Part shown: positions 28,286 through 36,521 of the stretch, piece by piece
How the letters are laid out: the number at the start of each line of letters is the position of its first letter
Numbering within the stretch: position 1 is the stretch's first letter
IMG/VR virus record: IMGVR_UViG_3300014682_000024
Coordinates: 1 to 43,160 of that record
Origin: a virus
Taxonomy: Duplodnaviria > Heunggongvirae > Uroviricota > Caudoviricetes
Strand: one strand, 5' to 3'
DNA length: 43,160 nt
Program-made: the position numbers and the translations under genes
The notes under the pieces: model-generated
The model's input: the letters and a program-made list of their open reading frames with translations, nothing else
What the model was told of the DNA's origin: nothing
Databases searched by the model: none

Positions 28286-29332
28286 TTAACGATTATTTTT
28301 TATTTCAGTTACAGTCTGATTAAATCTCTCTTCTTCCAGTTCCGCGCCAACCGCACGACGTCCCAGCGAAAGTGCTGCTTTTATTGTTGAGCCAGACCCC
28401 ATAAAAAAATCAGCCACCAAATCTCCCGGACGGCTGCTGGCCTCAATTATCTGCCGCAACATACCCGCCGGTTTTTCACAGGGATGTTTGCCCGGATAAA
28501 ACTGTACAGGTTTATGCGTCCAGACATCCGTATAAGGAACAGCTGCCGATACGGAAAAATAACGCCGCAGGGATTTGTACTCTTCCAGCAGGCTGGCATA
28601 TTGCCGGTTCAGTTCACTGTATGTGCTGACCAGCTGGTGGTGTGACTTTTCCAGTTCACCGCGCTGATGTTTTTCTGCCGCAACACGCGCAAACAACGCC
28701 TGCAATTTGTTGTAATCACCCTCGTTCGGTAACTGCCACTGACTGGTACCAAACCAGTGCGAAGCCATGTTTTTCTTTCCGGTGGCTTCCGCTATCTGTT
28801 TTGACGTTATTCCCAGTGATTCACGCGCATCACGAAAGTAAGAAATCAGCGGGGCCATGACGTGCTGTTTTAGCTCGCGCCCCTTTGCCGCATAGCCGTC
28901 ATTTTTGGGCTGGTATGGCCCCTGATAATGTTCTGCAAACAGAATGTGTTCTGTTGCCGGGAAATACGCCCGCAGGCTTTCCTTGTTGCATCCGTTCCAG
29001 CGTCCGGACGGCTTCGCCCAGATAATGTGGTTCAGCACATTAAAGCGCTGACGCATCATGATTTCGATATCAGATGCCAGGCGATGACCACAGAACAGGT
29101 AGAGACTTCCGGCAGGTTTCAGCACCCGCCAGAATTGCGCCAGACACTGATCCAGCCATTTCAGGTAATCATCGTCGCCCTTCCACTGGTTATCCCAGCC
29201 CTCGGGCTTCACTTTAAAGTATGGCGGGTCTGTGACTATCAGATCGACAGAGTTTTCCGGTAAGGTCTGGATAAATTCCAGGCAATCAGCGTTGATTAAC
29301 TCACAACTGGATATTTTTACAGTATTAGCCAT
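28286..29332 (-). CDS. DNA methyltransferase (N6-adenine or N4-cytosine type, beta-class motif order), orphan
   Basis: Motif IV DPPY near the N-terminus and motif I FFMGSGST near the C-terminus; no adjacent restriction endonuclease ORF. Confidence 0.8.
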   Translation of the reverse strand: MANTVKISSCELINADCLEFIQTLPENSVDLIVTDPPYFKVKPEGWDNQWKGDDDYLKWLDQCLAQFWRVLKPAGSLYLFCGHRLASDIEIMMRQRFNVLNHIIWAKPSGRWNGCNKESLRAYFPATEHILFAEHYQGPYQPKNDGYAAKGRELKQHVMAPLISYFRDARESLGITSKQIAEATGKKNMASHWFGTSQWQLPNEGDYNKLQALFARVAAEKHQRGELEKSHHQLVSTYSELNRQYASLLEEYKSLRRYFSVSAAVPYTDVWTHKPVQFYPGKHPCEKPAGMLRQIIEASSRPGDLVADFFMGSGSTIKAALSLGRRAVGAELEEERFNQTVTEIKNNR

Positions 29333-29882: not shown

Positions 29883-29911
29883 AATGTACGCGATTTAATT
29901 GATTTTTGCAA
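29883..29911 (-). promoter_or_regulatory. Putative late promoter (PR'-like): TTGCAA - 17 bp - TACATT, overlapping the 3' end of the Q-like gene
   Basis: Read on the minus strand; about 60 nt upstream of the terminator, matching the lambdoid Q-PR'-tR' layout. Confidence 0.45.
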
Positions 29912-30590
29912 CATCTCGTCGCGAAAAGGTCGCTTTTTGTTGCGTTCTCATTTTCACTGTGCAAATCAAGGATTCTGTATCAAGATTCTTAAAAATGTCG
30001 CACATCTCACGCCAGTAGTTCGCATAATTATGGCTCCAGTTGTCAGGTTTAATTCCACACAGCCTGGCAAGTTCCTGTCGCTGGTAGTTCTCATGCCCGG
30101 CTACCCATCCCCTGACATCCTGCGCCGCCAGCCAGATTAATTTTTTCAGGCGTTCCCGTGTTTTCCCTGCAATTTTTCTGGTACCGGATTGCGCCTTAAA
30201 TTCATTCCACGCCCACTGTGTTATCGCGATCTGATACTCCCAGCAAATATTTCCGCTGTAACACCACAACAACCAGTCTTTATGATGTTCTTCAAGAGAC
30301 AGAACTGCCCGTCGCCATGATGATGTCGAAAACTCAATCTGACTTACCAGAGGAATTGACGTCCCCTTCGCCAGCGATTGTTTCCCCGGGATCGGTGGAT
30401 TATCCCGCGTTATCATTTTTCCGGTAACTTCATCGCGGTACCGGATTTTTTTACGCCTGTAACGCCCTGTCTCAAACTTGGCATTCTCCTGCCAGGCTTC
30501 AAGCTGACCTTTTGTTGCCCCACTCAAATCAGCGGTGGCGATCATGAGTTGCTCACGAACAAACTGTAAATACTGGTTATTCATGCGCAC
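29895..30590 (-). CDS. Putative late antiterminator Q
   Basis: Assigned by position (immediately after rusA, immediately before promoter+terminator and the late genes); family not confirmed. Confidence 0.5.
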   Translation of the reverse strand: MRMNNQYLQFVREQLMIATADLSGATKGQLEAWQENAKFETGRYRRKKIRYRDEVTGKMITRDNPPIPGKQSLAKGTSIPLVSQIEFSTSSWRRAVLSLEEHHKDWLLWCYSGNICWEYQIAITQWAWNEFKAQSGTRKIAGKTRERLKKLIWLAAQDVRGWVAGHENYQRQELARLCGIKPDNWSHNYANYWREMCDIFKNLDTESLICTVKMRTQQKATFSRRDVAKIN

Positions 30591-32348: not shown

Positions 32349-32612
32349 TCACTCATCTTCAAAAGCAGAAAAACCAGCCTTAAGCCCAGCTTCTTTCAGA
32401 GACTGCAATGATGTGACAAATTCATTTTCACGCAAAATAAAACCATCCGTCACCAGTCCATCCACAAAGTAAATTAACGCCGCCCCACTCTTCCTTTGTT
32501 GAGACTGTAAACATTTAATACGGCAGTGGCTGACAATAGCGCCATTCTCAACGCGCACAGTATAGAGGCCATCTTCACTAAAAATTTCAACCAATTCTTC
32601 GATTTTCATCAA
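32349..32612 (-). CDS. Hypothetical protein (87 aa)
   Basis: ORF with start MMKIEEL; no family recognised. Confidence 0.3.
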   Translation of the reverse strand: MMKIEELVEIFSEDGLYTVRVENGAIVSHCRIKCLQSQQRKSGAALIYFVDGLVTDGFILRENEFVTSLQSLKEAGLKAGFSAFEDE

Positions 32613-32921
32613 CAGAATCCTTCCAGATAAATAGCACTCCCCTGCTCGGGGTCCATCCCTCTTCTCCCTGCGCGCTACTTAAGAGCCTCGATTCTAGCCG
32701 TGAAGACATACCAATCAACAGCAATAAGCCACCTGAATAACAGAATCAGCCAGCCACATCAGTACAACCAGTGCATCATGCTCACTGAAAATAAACAACA
32801 AAAAACCCGCCGAAGCGCTGAGGGGTCCCCATAAATCAGCGCTAAAGCGGGTTAAGTGCGGGTGCATTGAGGATACCTGACAACTTAAAGAGTGGCGGGA
32901 ATATGCTCCCCGCCGTAGCTC

Positions 32922-33074
32922 TTAACGTTTTTCAACTTCGTAGGCTAAATACGCTGAAAGCTCTGTGTTTCCCTGCCTGATGTGCAGCTCGCATAGCGAA
33001 CCGCGAACCATCCAGACAAATATCAGAATGGTGATGCAAACCACCACCAGACAAAACACATAGCTCCTTCGCAT
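32922..33074 (-). CDS. hok: Hok/Gef-family type I toxin (50 aa)
   Basis: Hand-translated MRRSYVFCLVVVCITILIFVWMVRGSLCELHIRQGNTELSAYLAYEVEKR; TM helix plus the conserved ..SLCE..IR.G..E.A..LAYE motif. Confidence 0.7.
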   Translation of the reverse strand: MRRSYVFCLVVVCITILIFVWMVRGSLCELHIRQGNTELSAYLAYEVEKR

Positions 33075-33132
33075 TACAGCCCCCTGTTAGTTGATTTCTT
33101 ACTGTTAAGAGGCTAATCTTTATGTGTCGCAT
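32932..33132 (-). CDS. mok: mok-like overlapping reading frame
   Basis: Track ORF overlaps nearly all of hok in another frame and starts upstream, as in hok/mok loci. Confidence 0.4.
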   Translation of the reverse strand: MRHIKISLLTVRNQLTGGCNAKELCVLSGGGLHHHSDICLDGSRFAMRAAHQAGKHRAFSVFSLRS

Positions 33133-33200
33133 ACAGATATGCCTCAGATTAATGTTAAGCGTCTTGCCGGACGCGTAATGTTAACTGGGGCTTTTCTCTA
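33091..33200 (+). ncRNA. Candidate Sok-like antisense RNA with promoter TTGATT - 17 bp - TAATCT
   Basis: Plus-strand promoter-like hexamers at 33091-33096 and 33114-33119, antisense to the mok start region; 3' end not defined. Confidence 0.3.
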
Positions 33201-33343
33201 TCTGCCGTTGGTGTTCATGCCCGAGGCAGATAGCCTCAAGCACCCGCAGCAATTCTACAAAAACAAACTATTACTTTCTATCCCCTTTCACTTGTCTCAT
33301 TTCTGACTATACTGCTCCTTCACACAACACAAAAGGTATAAAA

Positions 33344-33517
33344 ATGACCGTTCATGGTATATCGGAAAACAGTACTGTTCACTTATGTGAAAAAAATGGA
33401 GAATGGCTTGTAGTGCAAATTATTAGAAACGACGACATTACATATCAACTCCGAAATACAGATACAGATGAAGAAGTAATCGTCACGCTTCAGGACATTG
33501 TCTCCCCAAATAAATAA
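33344..33517 (+). CDS. Small AT-rich plus-strand ORF (57 aa), unknown function
   Basis: Hand-translated; opposite orientation to all neighbours; followed by a hairpin. Confidence 0.3.
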   Translation: MTVHGISENSTVHLCEKNGEWLVVQIIRNDDITYQLRNTDTDEEVIVTLQDIVSPNK

Positions 33518-33525
33518 TCAAATCA

Positions 33526-33546
33526 GCGGGGCGCACGATACCCCGC
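33526..33546. terminator. Bidirectional terminator-like hairpin between convergent genes
   Basis: gcgggg-cgcacgata-ccccgc; T-rich on the minus-strand side. Confidence 0.4.
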
Positions 33547-33640
33547 ACTATTCCACTTATCACCCCCCAGCGGCAAATCGAATACACCACCAGCGCCACC
33601 GCCATTGCAATTCCTACCGTAGTGAATGCCTCAGGCCAGG

Positions 33641-34315
33641 TCATTGATTCACCTCCTGCGGTGGTTCAGGCAACGCTTCCAGTGATGCTTTCACAAACCA
33701 CGCTGCCTGAACTATAACGCCATGAATCCAGCGCAAATCAGCATCGCGATCTTTCTTTTTCATCTTTTCGCCACTTAAAGCCTGGCTTATGTGGCTGCGC
33801 ACCAAGTCTTCATGTAACTCCTTCGCATCCTCAACGGTGAAACCACCAGGCAAAAGAGTCGGAGTTACCGGAGAGTTAGTTGACGTTTCCGGGATTTCCC
33901 GAAAGTTTCCGGCATGAAGCATGGCGGCGCGGCAGGCGTTCCATGAAATTTCCTGAAGGGAACGACGAATCTGTGTGCTGCATATACTCCTCCCTGACTC
34001 CTGGCTGTTAAACCATGTTTCAAATTCCGGCACTACTGGTGCTGGTTGGGTGGTGACATTGGCAAAGGCTGCACGCAACCCGGCCTTAATTTCCTCTACC
34101 TCATCAGCACCTGGAGATGAATCTGACAGTGCATGATGGAATGCGTAAGCCATATCGTCGTTTACTGCCACCGGCTCTGCTTCCAGCGATGCCAGTGCGA
34201 TACGAAACACATCAGCAAGTAGGCTGTTTGAAGATTGGTTATCGTGCGCCGGTTCGCTCAGGAAACCAGTGATGAATGATTTAATTTCCGCGTTTTCTCT
34301 GGTAATAGTGGTCAT
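33641..34315 (-). CDS. Hypothetical phage protein (224 aa)
   Basis: ORF in the nin-like region; no family recognised. Confidence 0.5.
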   Translation of the reverse strand: MTTITRENAEIKSFITGFLSEPAHDNQSSNSLLADVFRIALASLEAEPVAVNDDMAYAFHHALSDSSPGADEVEEIKAGLRAAFANVTTQPAPVVPEFETWFNSQESGRSICSTQIRRSLQEISWNACRAAMLHAGNFREIPETSTNSPVTPTLLPGGFTVEDAKELHEDLVRSHISQALSGEKMKKKDRDADLRWIHGVIVQAAWFVKASLEALPEPPQEVNQ

Positions 34316-35849: not shown

Positions 35850-36102
35850 TGGTTGTCTCCTTTTTCCATGTTTTCAGACTTTCACCACAGAACGGGCAAA
35901 ATGAGACTCGAATAGGTGATTTAGAAAATTCACCGGAACGCAACATCACCAAATCAGGGGCGCGAGTTAAATTCTCATTCCAGATTTTGTATATCAGCAG
36001 ACCTTTTCGCATCGTGTATTCAGCATCATGCTCAAGGGCTTTTGCCAGTGCCGCACATGGTTCTAACTGATTGCCATTAACCTGACATTTTGATTCGCTC
36101 AC
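35836..36102 (-). CDS. Small hypothetical protein with CxxC zinc-ribbon-like motif
   Basis: 88-aa ORF with CPFCGE. Confidence 0.4.
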   Translation of the reverse strand: MSESKCQVNGNQLEPCAALAKALEHDAEYTMRKGLLIYKIWNENLTRAPDLVMLRSGEFSKSPIRVSFCPFCGESLKTWKKETTSEQD

Positions 36103-36521
36103 AGCATCACCTCCTGAAATTTCCCCTGATAAAACGCCAGCACTCGCTGCATAACCTCACTCTTCCGGCACTCGCGACAGATTATGTTCAGGTGTCTGTC
36201 GTAGCGGCGTATTTCTCCGTCTGGTAACTTTCGAATCAGTGTCTGGTCAGTTGTTTTCTCCGGTGTCTTACGCCATTCACGATACGCCTGCTCTGATGCA
36301 AAAACACCGTATTCCCCGGACATGTATAAATCACCACAAGCCAGTACATCCACAAGGCAGCGCCGGACCGAATGCCAGCCAGCTCCCGTCGCTCTCTCCA
36401 GTTGCGACATCGTCATGCGTCCATTTTTGCGTACCAATCCGATAATTCGTGCCTTCAGCTCTTCCCGCTGTTCGAGAGAAAAAGGTTTCGCCATAAATCC
36501 TCCTGAAAAAATCACCTTCAC
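36099..36521 (-). CDS. Hypothetical protein, winged-helix-like N-terminus
   Basis: ORF directly downstream of the P-like gene. Confidence 0.4.
   Translation of the reverse strand: MKVIFSGGFMAKPFSLEQREELKARIIGLVRKNGRMTMSQLERATGAGWHSVRRCLVDVLACGDLYMSGEYGVFASEQAYREWRKTPEKTTDQTLIRKLPDGEIRRYDRHLNIICRECRKSEVMQRVLAFYQGKFQEVML

Follow-up and report, generated by a model that had tools for sequence, protein, structure and literature searches.

The archetype of the hok/mok/sok type I toxin-antitoxin systems is the parB locus of plasmid R1, for which a model of the mechanism has been described and the toxicity of Hok and its RNase III-dependent neutralisation by Sok have been shown, in which 19 mok codons precede hok, and in which the last stem-loop of the truncated mRNA is held to protect that mRNA (PMC9841398). 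Fast binding of Sok in R1 was reported to depend decisively on a YUNR motif in the target loop (PMC6562991). The closest described prophage system is hokW-mokW-sokW of the Stx phage 933W and the Sakai prophage Sp5. Experimentally, hokW-sokW is a type I toxin-antitoxin pair in which Sok neutralises a toxic Hok; it aids lysis of Sp5 and phage release and has no effect on growth in uninduced lysogens (PMC8621323). To the same family belong hokA to hokE of Escherichia coli K-12, with sokA, sokB, sokC and sokE. The Rfam model RF01794 matches all of them except hokD, which likewise lies in a lambdoid (cryptic) prophage, Qin, and has no leader.

In the window, by which we mean the whole 43,160-nt stretch of viral DNA that was analysed, lies what is very probably an intact-looking hok/mok/sok cassette in the nin region of a lambdoid prophage (Table 1). 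It has the same three-gene architecture as R1 and shares with it the tac/fbi end-pairing, the ucb anti-Shine-Dalgarno box, the target hairpin formed by the mok Shine-Dalgarno (SD) sequence and dcb, a hok AUG preceded by 19 mok codons, and a Sok whose 5′ tail lies over the mok start. R1 is plasmid-borne and carries a loop YUNR, whereas the present cassette is prophage-borne, lacks YUNR and has an extended Sok hairpin. Every element is present and in register with the others (promoter −10, tac, ucb, mok SD and AUG, dcb, hok SD and ORF, fbi, sok promoter and sok terminator), and the unit is free of IS elements, frameshifts and disrupting stop codons, whereas hokA, hokC and hokE of K-12 carry IS150 or IS186 insertions or flanks. 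The cassette is an ordinary member of a well-known module, and the identical toxin is already public as a Hok/Gef family protein. An initial annotation had placed a hok/mok/sok-like locus at 32880-33200; the locus is indeed there, but these limits are too narrow, as the hok promoter, tac, fbi and the terminator fall outside them. That the ORF track had failed to report it was also correct, the cause being ORF-length filtering and not novelty, given that the identical protein is annotated in RefSeq.

Table 1. Features of the hok/mok/sok cassette, in positions of the window
Feature	Position	Strand	Sequence, extent or basis
Whole hok/mok/sok unit	~32797 to 33280		terminator to hok −35
Predicted hok/mok mRNA promoter	33252..33280	−	−35 TAGAAA (33280-33275), 17-nt spacer, −10 TAGAAT (33257-33252)
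Predicted full-length hok/mok mRNA	32797..33245	−	~449 nt
tac (translational activator) element	33234..33245	−	5′-GGGUGCUUGAGG; pairs with fbi in full-length MFE fold
ucb / anti-SD box	33187..33193	−	AAGCCCC, mRNA nt 53-59
Leader hairpin 2	33147..33186	−	complement of Sok stem-loop; Rfam alignment
Tip extension of hairpin 2	33159-33174	−	16 nt, GC-rich, relative to Rfam consensus
mok Shine-Dalgarno	33141..33145	−	GAGGC, mRNA nt 101-105; invariant in 12/12 loci
mok-like leader ORF	32932..33132	−	66 codons; ORF list
dcb	33109..33113	−	GCCUC, mRNA nt 133-137; closes Sok-target hairpin with mok SD
hok Shine-Dalgarno	33084-33080	−	GGGGG
hok toxin gene	32922..33074	−	50 aa; Pfam PF01848, PHROG 251, RefSeq identity
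GC-rich post-stop hairpin	32894..32914	−	GGCGGGGAGCAUAUUCCCGCC, mRNA nt 332-352, just past hok stop; MFE folds
fbi (fold-back inhibition) element	32860..32872	−	CCUCAAUGCACCC; 12 bp and one bulge with tac
Predicted intrinsic terminator of hok mRNA	32797..32852	−	hairpin 32852-32806, then U6 32805-32800
Predicted sok promoter	33091..33119	+	−35 TTGATT (33091-96), 17-nt spacer, −10 TAATCT (33114-19)
Predicted Sok antisense RNA	33126..33196	+	~70 nt; positional homologue of annotated 71-nt sokW misc_RNA

The covariance-model search proposed in the initial annotation was positive. RF01794 matched at 33245-33072 with 98.2 bits (gathering score 59; E 3.7e-21) over model positions 1-157 of 157, the match ending exactly on the hok AUG and containing one 16-nt insertion, in hairpin 2. 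Because of this E value the locus lies far beyond what chance would yield. The model, named 'sok', is oriented in the sense of the hok mRNA, so that Sok itself is the reverse complement, on the plus strand. This arrangement recurs in 933W, in K-12 (hokB, hokC and hokE) and in nine loci of five further genera.

The 50-aa Hok-family ORF recovered earlier by hand translation proved to be a clear family member. Its product, MRRSYVFCLVVVCITILIFVWMVRGSLCELHIRQGNTELSAYLAYEVEKR, matches Pfam PF01848 (HOK_GEF) with 70.4 bits (E 9.6e-20, cutoff 22 bits, profile positions 3-42 of 42) and PHROG 251, 'MokW-like host killing', which belongs to the class 'moron, auxiliary metabolic gene and host takeover', and it is identical to RefSeq WP_001585819.1, 'Hok/Gef family protein'. 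Hok/Gef membership was judged by a length of about 50 aa, an N-terminal hydrophobic helix and a conserved SLCE(L/V) core, all of which are seen here, and the ...RGSLCELHI... motif is one that this Hok shares with 13 loci. The overlapping mok-like frame was likewise found: its AUG precedes that of hok by 58 nt (19 codons plus 1 nt) and is out of frame with it, the same offset as between mokB and hokB of K-12; its stop falls 10 nt short of the hok stop; and its SD sits 9 nt upstream of the ORF. The SD is kept across loci and the position of the mok AUG in most of those compared. A Pfam search with the mok frame gave no match, as is expected for a frame that matters only through being translated (PMC9841398). 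Two other short ORFs, one of 60 aa on the plus strand (33124..33306) and one of 50 aa on the minus strand (32715..32867), were rejected as genes; both are without a family match and overlap RNA elements.

The predicted hok promoter was listed by a generic promoter scan with 9/12 consensus matches, the scan alone being non-significant (3 sites vs 1.6 ± 1.4 in shuffles). The predicted +1, about 7 nt downstream of the −10 at ~33245, coincides with position 1 of the Rfam model. In 933W and ETEC1731 the −10 TAGAAT is kept and the sequence upstream of it differs. Both ends of the mRNA are predictions, the 5′ end from the Rfam model position and promoter spacing and the 3′ end from the hairpin followed by U6. 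Its minimum free energy (MFE) fold reaches −194.5 kcal/mol (z = −10.1 vs dinucleotide shuffles). The terminator, taken from a hairpin in the MFE fold and a U run read from the sequence, was not listed by a simple terminator scan, and the segment carrying it is context-specific, being missing from 933W and from many E. coli copies. The only 'terminator' that the scan returned (33048-33027) falls within hok coding sequence and is likely to be a false hit. The hairpin just past the hok stop is kept in 933W and, by analogy with the last stem-loop of the truncated R1 mRNA, is predicted to protect the 3′ end of the processed mRNA.

The structural elements of a hok mRNA, whose lack the initial annotation had counted towards a refutation, were found as well, in the form of tac/fbi and ucb/mok SD/dcb pairings. 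The tac/fbi duplex has an energy of −21.5 kcal/mol vs −15.6 ± 2.1 kcal/mol in shuffles, of which 8 in 1000 reach it. The two elements covary across 13 loci spanning genera, with compensatory types UUGAGG/CCUCAA in Escherichia and CUGGAUC/GAUCCAnG in Erwinia and Serratia, and fbi keeps a fixed place 42-49 nt past the hok stop. Aligning tac and fbi as concatenated segments with MAFFT shifted the outer stem by 2 nt through an indel and was unsuitable for counting pairs, which were taken from the duplex of each locus instead. The alternative partners of tac are ucb and nt 20-29. In the closed forms ucb pairs with the mok SD, which it holds in the full-length fold; in the open form ucb pairs with tac and the mok SD with dcb, in a target hairpin that folds alone at −13 to −14 kcal/mol. 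Both RNAalifold and Rfam have the tac/ucb stem in their consensus, and RNAalifold also gives the SD/dcb stem and an inner hairpin in which 4 pairs are compensatory. The tip extension of hairpin 2 is present in hokW of 933W and in 10 of the 19 loci carrying this Hok type, and missing from the Salmonella, Citrobacter, Enterobacter, Erwinia and Serratia loci.

We compared the energies of the open, translatable form and the closed form over a range of 3′ ends, including a 358-nt truncation. The unconstrained MFE fold of the 3′-truncated RNA was still closed, with tac on nt 20-29 and the mok SD on ucb; because it missed the open form, constrained energies were used. By these, the open form costs +6.5 to +8.2 kcal/mol with complete fbi (+8.2 kcal/mol in the full-length RNA) and 0 to +3.3 kcal/mol without it, about +0.6 kcal/mol after 3′ trimming, so that in the truncated RNA it is near-isoenergetic only, not favoured. 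Nascent transcripts of the family are expected to form a metastable 5′ hairpin, tac pairing with the sequence directly downstream of it. Here, pairing of tac with nt 20-29 appears in the MFE folds of RNAs of 200-370 nt, but at lengths of 60-140 nt the tac/ucb stem is the more stable by about 6.8 kcal/mol (equilibrium energies). The modelled folding energetics thus computed fit the switch of plasmid R1.

A plus-strand promoter positioned to make an antisense RNA over the mok start had also been claimed, and the prediction holds up by homology and invariant bases. The generic sigma-70 scan did not list this promoter, which has 7/12 consensus bases and falls below threshold, and for that reason we relied on homology and invariance. 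It aligns base for base with the sequence upstream of the annotated sokW (TTGCCT-17-TAACCT) and of sokC, and across 12 diverged loci neither the TTG of the −35 nor the T, A and final T of the −10 varies, the spacing being constant. Transcription is predicted to start at the G in the first position of Sok and to run antisense across the mok AUG and SD. By both its position and its sequence, the Sok-like gene is a homologue of the annotated sokW, sokC and sokB, its 3′ end being uncertain by about ± 5 nt. The predicted RNA has a single-stranded 5′ tail complementary to the mok AUG and the target loop, then a long stem-loop covering the complement of the mok SD, and finally a GGGGCUUUU tail; it folds at −29.6 kcal/mol (z = −5.1) into the canonical shape of unpaired 5′ tail, hairpin and U-rich tail. 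The predicted target loop, CGACA, is at 5 nt the smallest among the loci compared, and no YUNR U-turn motif occurs anywhere in nt 106-125 of this locus. Such a motif is found at the target site in 933W, Salmonella, Citrobacter, Enterobacter and K-12 hokB. Because it is missing from 6 of the 12 other loci evaluated as well (a count that leaves out K-12 hokC and hokE, which do not fit the simple SD/dcb regular expression), YUNR was treated as a rate-enhancing property of the R1 type and not as a criterion of family membership.

Among described systems the likeness to hokW-mokW-sokW is the most detailed. Both sit at the same place in a lambdoid nin region and share the strand of the early-right operon; nt 1-105 of the mRNA leader, comprising tac, ucb, the extended Sok stem-loop and the mok SD, are identical (105/105), as are the −10 boxes; fbi is identical at 12 of 13 positions; and Sok matches in length and shape. 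Beyond nt 105, however, identity falls to 63-79%, and the toxins share only 18 of 50 residues (36%). The Sok 5′ tail and target read GUCGCAUACAGAUAUGCC here vs GUUCAGCAUGGAUUGAGCC in 933W, whose loop has a YUNR (CUGA) that the present locus lacks; mokW is annotated in the hokW frame with a shared stop, whereas mok here is in another frame; and 933W differs 3′ of fbi. The K-12 toxins are 36-50% identical to Hok here, HokA being closest (25/50), and among the plasmid-borne Hok proteins of PLSDB identity does not exceed about 62%. Close variants of WP_001585819.1 occur in Salmonella, Citrobacter and Enterobacter; those of Salmonella and Citrobacter are 96% and 86% identical in amino acids, with a different leader that lacks the hairpin extension.

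Considering these two sets of similarities, it is conceivable, if doubtful, that the cassette is a natural chimera, with a recombination point within sok, near mRNA nt 100-125. The front end, from the flank and promoter through tac and ucb to the Sok stem and terminator, is of hokW type, and the toxin back end is 92-96% identical to the Salmonella-type locus, while the Sok 5′ tail and target loop resemble neither putative parent (79% and 68% identity, and without a U-turn motif). If this were true and such exchanges were routine, new orthogonal Sok-hok specificities could arise, and cassettes with one shared front end could coexist in poly-lysogens without cross-protection, which would add, modestly but genuinely, to the picture of how type I toxin-antitoxin modules diversify.

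The cassette points the same way as the early-right (pR) operon and lies between the replication genes and Q. Its neighbours, all on the minus strand, are in order holin/endolysin, tRNAs, a methyltransferase, Q, RusA and DUF968/HNH on one side and Ren, P, O and CII on the other, the Ren-like exclusion protein being at 36099-36521. The segment 32845-33258 is 98-99% identical in E. coli chromosomes, and many E. coli prophages and viral contigs carry the cassette with 98-100% conservation. Public records place the identical Hok, named 'Hok/Gef family protein', on 532 contigs, and five IMG/VR viral contigs encode it. In the phage collection there was no full-length copy of the cassette, the DNA matches covering the shared leader only, and the closest toxin in a phage record there is <48% identical. 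Some E. coli genomes hold up to 10 related cassettes.

The way in which the cassette may work can be outlined from its predicted elements and, for the later steps, from R1. A weak promoter would give an mRNA of ~449 nt from the minus strand, which codes for Hok, a membrane toxin of 50 aa, and for the mok frame that overlaps it, and a plus-strand gene would give the ~70-nt Sok, complementary to the mok start region. In the full-length RNA, tac is predicted to lie on fbi, the mok SD to be held by ucb and the Sok target to be buried. If the locus behaves as R1 does, slow 3′ trimming would remove fbi, upon which tac would pair with ucb and the mok SD would move into the hairpin with dcb; the trimmed form would be translatable, with translation of hok coupled to that of mok. 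Sok would bind the trimmed form through its 5′ tail, leading to a cut by RNase III. As long as Sok is made no Hok would appear, and when Sok falls the stable mRNA pool would yield Hok, which would damage the inner membrane. Post-segregational killing of plasmid-free cells is not directly applicable to an integrated prophage. By analogy with hokW-sokW of Sp5, the most likely role would be a contribution to host killing and lysis at prophage induction, and/or to prophage retention; the role in lysis is an extrapolation, because Hok here is only 36% identical to HokW.

An unlikely alternative to such a role, though the best placed of those considered, is that the cassette is functional and serves mainly in defence, by abortive infection or exclusion of superinfecting phages, an invader's shut-off of host transcription depleting the unstable Sok and so releasing Hok. 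The accessory neighbours in the nin region, among them the Ren-like exclusion protein, and the class of PHROG 251 are in keeping with this, and hok/sok of R1 reportedly excludes phage T4, a finding attributed to Pecota and Wood in 1996. On the other hand, the sole experimental study of the nearest prophage relative gave a phenotype of lysis and phage release (PMC8621323), and the two roles are not mutually exclusive.

It is still less probable that the locus, a hok/sok member by descent, is functionally dead or attenuated and travels as passive prophage cargo. The visible disruption or flanking of K-12 hokA, hokC and hokE by IS elements would fit such a fate, as would a lineage without loop YUNR and with the smallest target loop of the loci compared, and the replacement, relative to 933W and ETEC1731, of the sequence upstream of the hok −10, which leaves a weak −35 TAGAAA. 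A weak hok promoter, however, is normal for the family, as known from R1; 6 further loci that look intact have no loop YUNR either; and the elements in register, the lack of any IS, stop codon or frameshift, the 98-100% conservation in many E. coli prophages and viral contigs and the presence of the protein on 532 contigs all argue against decay. Finally, the idea that short ORFs and a promoter-like site have come together by chance, with no toxin-antitoxin module at all, draws on how often short ORFs and 7/12 promoter matches arise by chance and on the scan count of 3 sites vs 1.6 expected, and is refuted by the Rfam match (E 4e-21), the Pfam match (E 1e-19) and the covariation of tac and fbi across genera, beside the existence of near-identical annotated loci.

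Cumulatively, our findings favour a hok/mok/sok cassette that would act, most likely, at prophage induction and/or in prophage retention. It opens no new biological question, and its chief value is one of annotation: type I toxin genes and antisense RNAs fall under ORF-length cut-offs, and the public records for this cassette (those of WP_001585819.1 in Escherichia prophages) annotate the toxin CDS only, with no mok, Sok or mRNA switch elements. The cassette may explain cloning toxicity of this prophage segment, cross-talk is possible among the related cassettes that some E. coli genomes carry, and the cassette is relevant to the timing of lysis and to phage yield on induction, as shown for hokW-sokW.

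The reading of the locus as hok/mok/sok-like (toxin gene, overlapping leader frame and antisense RNA) made in the initial annotation was supported by a family toxin, an RF01794 leader and homology of the sok promoter. The 50-aa product, there assigned to the Hok family, matched Pfam PF01848 (Hok/Gef) over nearly the entire profile (70.4 bits, E 9.6e-20) and also PHROG 251, 'MokW-like host killing'. The overlapping mok-like frame was likewise present, starting 58 nt upstream of the hok ORF in a different frame and ending 10 nt before the hok stop; in the same profile search, neither this 66-aa frame nor other small nearby ORFs matched any family. The covariance-model search suggested at the outset was positive: scanning the entire window against Rfam at the gathering threshold returned three matches, of which two were tRNAs and the third was RF01794 'sok'. 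Given the PF01848 and RF01794 matches, the observation is real and far beyond chance. The interval first assigned to the locus, 32880-33200, was too narrow, the true extent being about 32797-33280. We regard membership of the hok/mok/sok family as highly probable, and are somewhat less confident that the cassette is currently active; by analogy with close relatives, toxicity, Sok expression, RNA processing and a role in the prophage would be expected.

Features of the hok/mok/sok cassette, with the repressor-like gene of the same window
Feature	Position	Strand	Basis
hok toxin ORF, 50 aa, MRRSYVFCLVVVCITILIFVWMVRGSLCELHIRQGNTELSAYLAYEVEKR	32922..33074	-	ORF listing and direct reading of the region
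mok-like ORF, 66 codons	32932..33132	-	ORF listing
RF01794 'sok' match, full model length	33245..33072	-	98.2 bits vs gathering score 59; E 3.7e-21
Predicted hok promoter, TAGAAA-17-TAGAAT	33280..33252	-	promoter scan
tac, GGGUGCUUGAGG	33245-33234 (nt 1-12)	-	paired with fbi in 449-nt fold
fbi, CCUCAAUGCACCC	32872-32860	-	paired with tac in 449-nt fold
mok SD, GAGGC	33145-33141	-	paired with ucb in 449-nt fold
ucb / anti-SD, AAGCCCC	33193-33187	-	upstream partner of mok SD in 449-nt fold
GC hairpin downstream of hok stop	32914-32894	-	direct reading and fold
Long hairpin then U6 run, 3' of fbi	32852-32800	-	direct reading and fold
Predicted sok promoter, TTGATT (33091-96), 17-nt spacer, TAATCT (33114-19)	33091-33119	+	homology to sokW, sokC
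Predicted Sok RNA, G start	33126 to ~33196	+	fold and position
Repressor-like gene	38780-39238	+	PHROG results

RF01794 is named 'sok antitoxin' yet runs in the sense of the hok mRNA, as checked in the window (33072-33245, minus strand) and in the compared hok/sok loci L002, L012, L013 and L016. In the window the match lies on the hok strand and its final three model positions are the hok AUG; the same strand and AUG end recur in phage 933W and in nine Salmonella, Citrobacter, Enterobacter, Erwinia and Serratia loci, and the same arrangement in K-12 hokC, hokB and hokE. Because the Sok RNA lies within the match on the opposite strand in every record annotating one (sokW, sokC, sokB, sokE), and the AUG stands at the model end, RF01794 describes the leader of the hok mRNA, beginning at +1 and ending on the hok AUG, and reverse-complementing the model's middle part gives Sok. 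Annotators relying on Rfam matches would place Sok on the wrong strand. The chromosomes of three Erwinia and Serratia loci (L006, L007, L009) carry two tandem hok/sok cassettes, ~480-585 bp apart, each with a separate RF01794 leader; in the second leader of L007, AGG and not AUG stands at the end of the Rfam match, and the frame from there has only 9 codons.

The plus-strand promoter sequence proposed to drive an antisense Sok-like RNA is present. It matched only 7 of 12 consensus bases and was absent from the list of the generic promoter scan, and it aligns with the sequence upstream of annotated sokW and sokC, with which it shares TTGnnn, a 17-nt spacer ending in AAGAGGC, TAAnCT or equivalent, ATGT and a G start. 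Across a 12-locus alignment the -35 TTG and -10 positions 1, 2 and 6 are invariant and the spacing is constant. In its fold (-29.6 kcal/mol, z = -5.1), the predicted Sok RNA starts with an unpaired 5' tail, continues into a long hairpin and ends in a GGGGCUUUU tail.

On the opposite strand, the predicted hok promoter implies a +1 at ~33245, which is position 1 of the RF01794 model; its -10 box recurs in 933W and in ETEC1731, a prophage of an ETEC E. coli, while the sequence upstream of the -10 differs. The predicted 449-nt RNA (33245 to 32797, minus strand) folds at -194.5 kcal/mol (z = -10.1), its ends joined by 12 bp, with one bulge, between tac and fbi, elements of the plasmid R1 model, and the complement of the Sok 5' tail pairs with fbi-adjacent sequence. 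Past the hok stop the order is GC hairpin, fbi, long hairpin, U6 run. Just downstream of the hok terminator, a promoter-like site, TTGATT-16-TAGAAT (32691-32718, minus strand), stands upstream of an 87-aa ORF (32349..32612, PHROG 340) and may restart transcription of the downstream nin genes.

When the 200 nt after the hok stop were dinucleotide-shuffled 1000 times, the tac duplex energy of -21.5 kcal/mol was reached 8 times; the same test on three diverged loci gave 0, 0 and 4. Moreover, tac/fbi covaries across the compared loci: GGGUGCUUGAGGC is paired with CCUCAAnGCACCC in Escherichia, Salmonella, Citrobacter and Enterobacter, GGGUGCUCUGGAUC with GAUCCAnGAGCACCC in Erwinia and Serratia, and GGGUGCUCAGGAUC with GGGUCUUUGAGCACCC in one further locus (L011), fbi starting 42-49 nt past the hok stop in all of them. 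RNAalifold on the leaders recovered two stems, tac/ucb and a conserved SD/dcb, as well as an inner hairpin in which four pairs are compensatory. The hok mRNA structural elements to which the initial annotation had referred were thus found as tac/fbi, mok SD/ucb and SD/dcb pairings.

In the R1 model, the full-length mRNA is closed through tac/fbi with the mok SD held by ucb, 3' processing yields tac/ucb and SD/dcb stems and thereby a translatable or Sok-bindable form, and co-transcriptional translation is blocked by a metastable 5' hairpin (PMC9841398). Comparison of constrained folds gave a cost of forced tac/ucb pairing of +8.2 kcal/mol in the full-length RNA vs +0.6 in RNA ending at nt 358. 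When 3' ends were scanned, the closed form was favoured by 6.5-8.2 kcal/mol with fbi complete (3' end at nt 386 or beyond), and with fbi incomplete the open form lay 0-3.3 kcal/mol from the MFE. As long as the 3' end lies no further than nt 366, the forced open form has the SD paired with dcb (33113-33109) in the target hairpin, whose 5-nt loop the mok AUG adjoins; the unconstrained MFE of the truncated RNA is still closed, tac being paired with nt 20-29. These modelled energetics are consistent with an R1-type switch without proving it.

For rapid Sok binding, a YUNR U-turn motif in the target loop of hok is reported to be decisive (PMC6562991). No YUNR occurs anywhere in nt 106-125 of the window locus, and its predicted target loop is CGACA; CUGA, CUAG or CUCG stands at this site in 933W, Salmonella, Citrobacter, Enterobacter, one Erwinia locus and K-12 hokB. 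Since the motif is also missing from six other Erwinia and Serratia loci, we treat it as a variable rate-enhancing feature and not as a criterion of membership. As at hokB and in R1, the window mok reads in a different frame from hok, unlike annotated mokW and mokC, which share the frame and stop of hok.

The cassette belongs to a kind of element that is already known and annotated. On 532 contigs in public collections, the exact 50-aa protein bears the name 'Hok/Gef family protein' (Escherichia, MULTISPECIES); it is annotated as WP_001585819.1 in E. coli chromosomes with a 98-99% identical cassette, and is encoded by five IMG/VR viral contigs. Its identity is 50% to HokA, 42% to HokE, 40% to HokB and HokC, 36% to HokD and HokW, at most ~62% to any plasmid Hok and under 48% to any Hok in the phage collection. 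Among systems studied experimentally, the closest is hokW-sokW of 933W and Sakai prophage Sp5, which occupies the same nin-region slot.

The source element is a lambdoid prophage, and the right 25 kb of the window is 94.5% identical to E. coli prophages over 76% of its length. By PHROG and tRNA results, the minus strand carries, in order, endolysin/holin (26.1-27.3 kb), tRNA-Gly, tRNA-Thr, a DNA methyltransferase, the Q antiterminator (29895-30590), RusA, DUF968/HNH, two small genes, hok/sok, DUF551-like genes, a Ren-like protein, the P-like and O-like replication proteins and a CII-like activator. Only two tRNA genes (Gly-TCC, Thr-TGT; 27955-28108, minus strand) lie between Q and the lysis genes, where the related ETEC1731 prophage has four (Gly, Thr, Lys, Ile); the methyltransferase gene (348 aa; 28286-29332, minus strand) belongs to the leader region of the late operon, with Q on one side and the tRNA genes on the other. 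The Ren-like exclusion protein (36099-36521, minus strand; PHROG 142, E 4e-43), directly downstream of the P-like helicase loader, is a second accessory/exclusion-type gene of the early-right operon carrying hok/sok. A ~260-bp segment (33259-33520), which separates the hok -10 box from the minus-strand genes upstream, is absent from 933W and ETEC1731. It holds a 57-aa ORF (33344..33517, plus strand) with no Pfam or PHROG match, annotated in E. coli JNE120393 as 'hypothetical protein' WP_157910004.1; in that strain the same flank borders a HokD/W-type hok. This ORF is convergent with, and overlaps the end of, a hydrophobic 53-aa ORF (33483-33644, minus strand) with no family match, whose ATG overlaps the stop of a 224-aa DUF551-like ORF (ATGA, 33644-33641) and whose ...ALVVYSICRW stretch resembles the C-terminal end of 933W L0139.

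With respect to the early-right operon, hok is co-oriented and sok convergent. We infer that pR read-through after induction would traverse the cassette in the sense of hok and oppose transcription of sok, which would fit the report that, after mitomycin C, sokW RNA falls and HokW rises (PMC8621323).

Segment-wise identity along the cassette shows a sharp junction. Compared with hokW, mRNA nt 1-105 are identical (105/105), including a GC-rich stretch of 16 nt that extends the Sok hairpin tip and is missing from the Rfam consensus, and identity beyond is 63-79%; compared with a Salmonella locus, identity is 92-96% over nt 125-373 and only 31% in leader hairpin 2, where the Salmonella sequence has no such extension. 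Between the blocks, the 19 nt that comprise the Sok 5'-tail target and mok start are close to neither parent (79% and 68%). At 33141-33132, between mok SD and AUG, a 1-nt indel (CATATCTGTATG in the window vs CAT-TCTGTATG in ETEC1731 and several viral contigs) alters both the spacing of SD and AUG and the Sok tail by a single base, the cassettes being otherwise ~100% identical. The hokW-type leader accompanies 10 of the 19 loci encoding the same Hok type and is lacking in the other nine; the 400 bp upstream of the hok -10 box are found beside HokD/HokW-type toxins in other E. coli prophages, and a cassette with the same toxin lies in a different nin context in an O111:H8 strain. Together, these identities and contexts point to a shared regulatory front end joined to alternative toxin back ends, that is, to modular evolution within a known family and not to a new kind of system.
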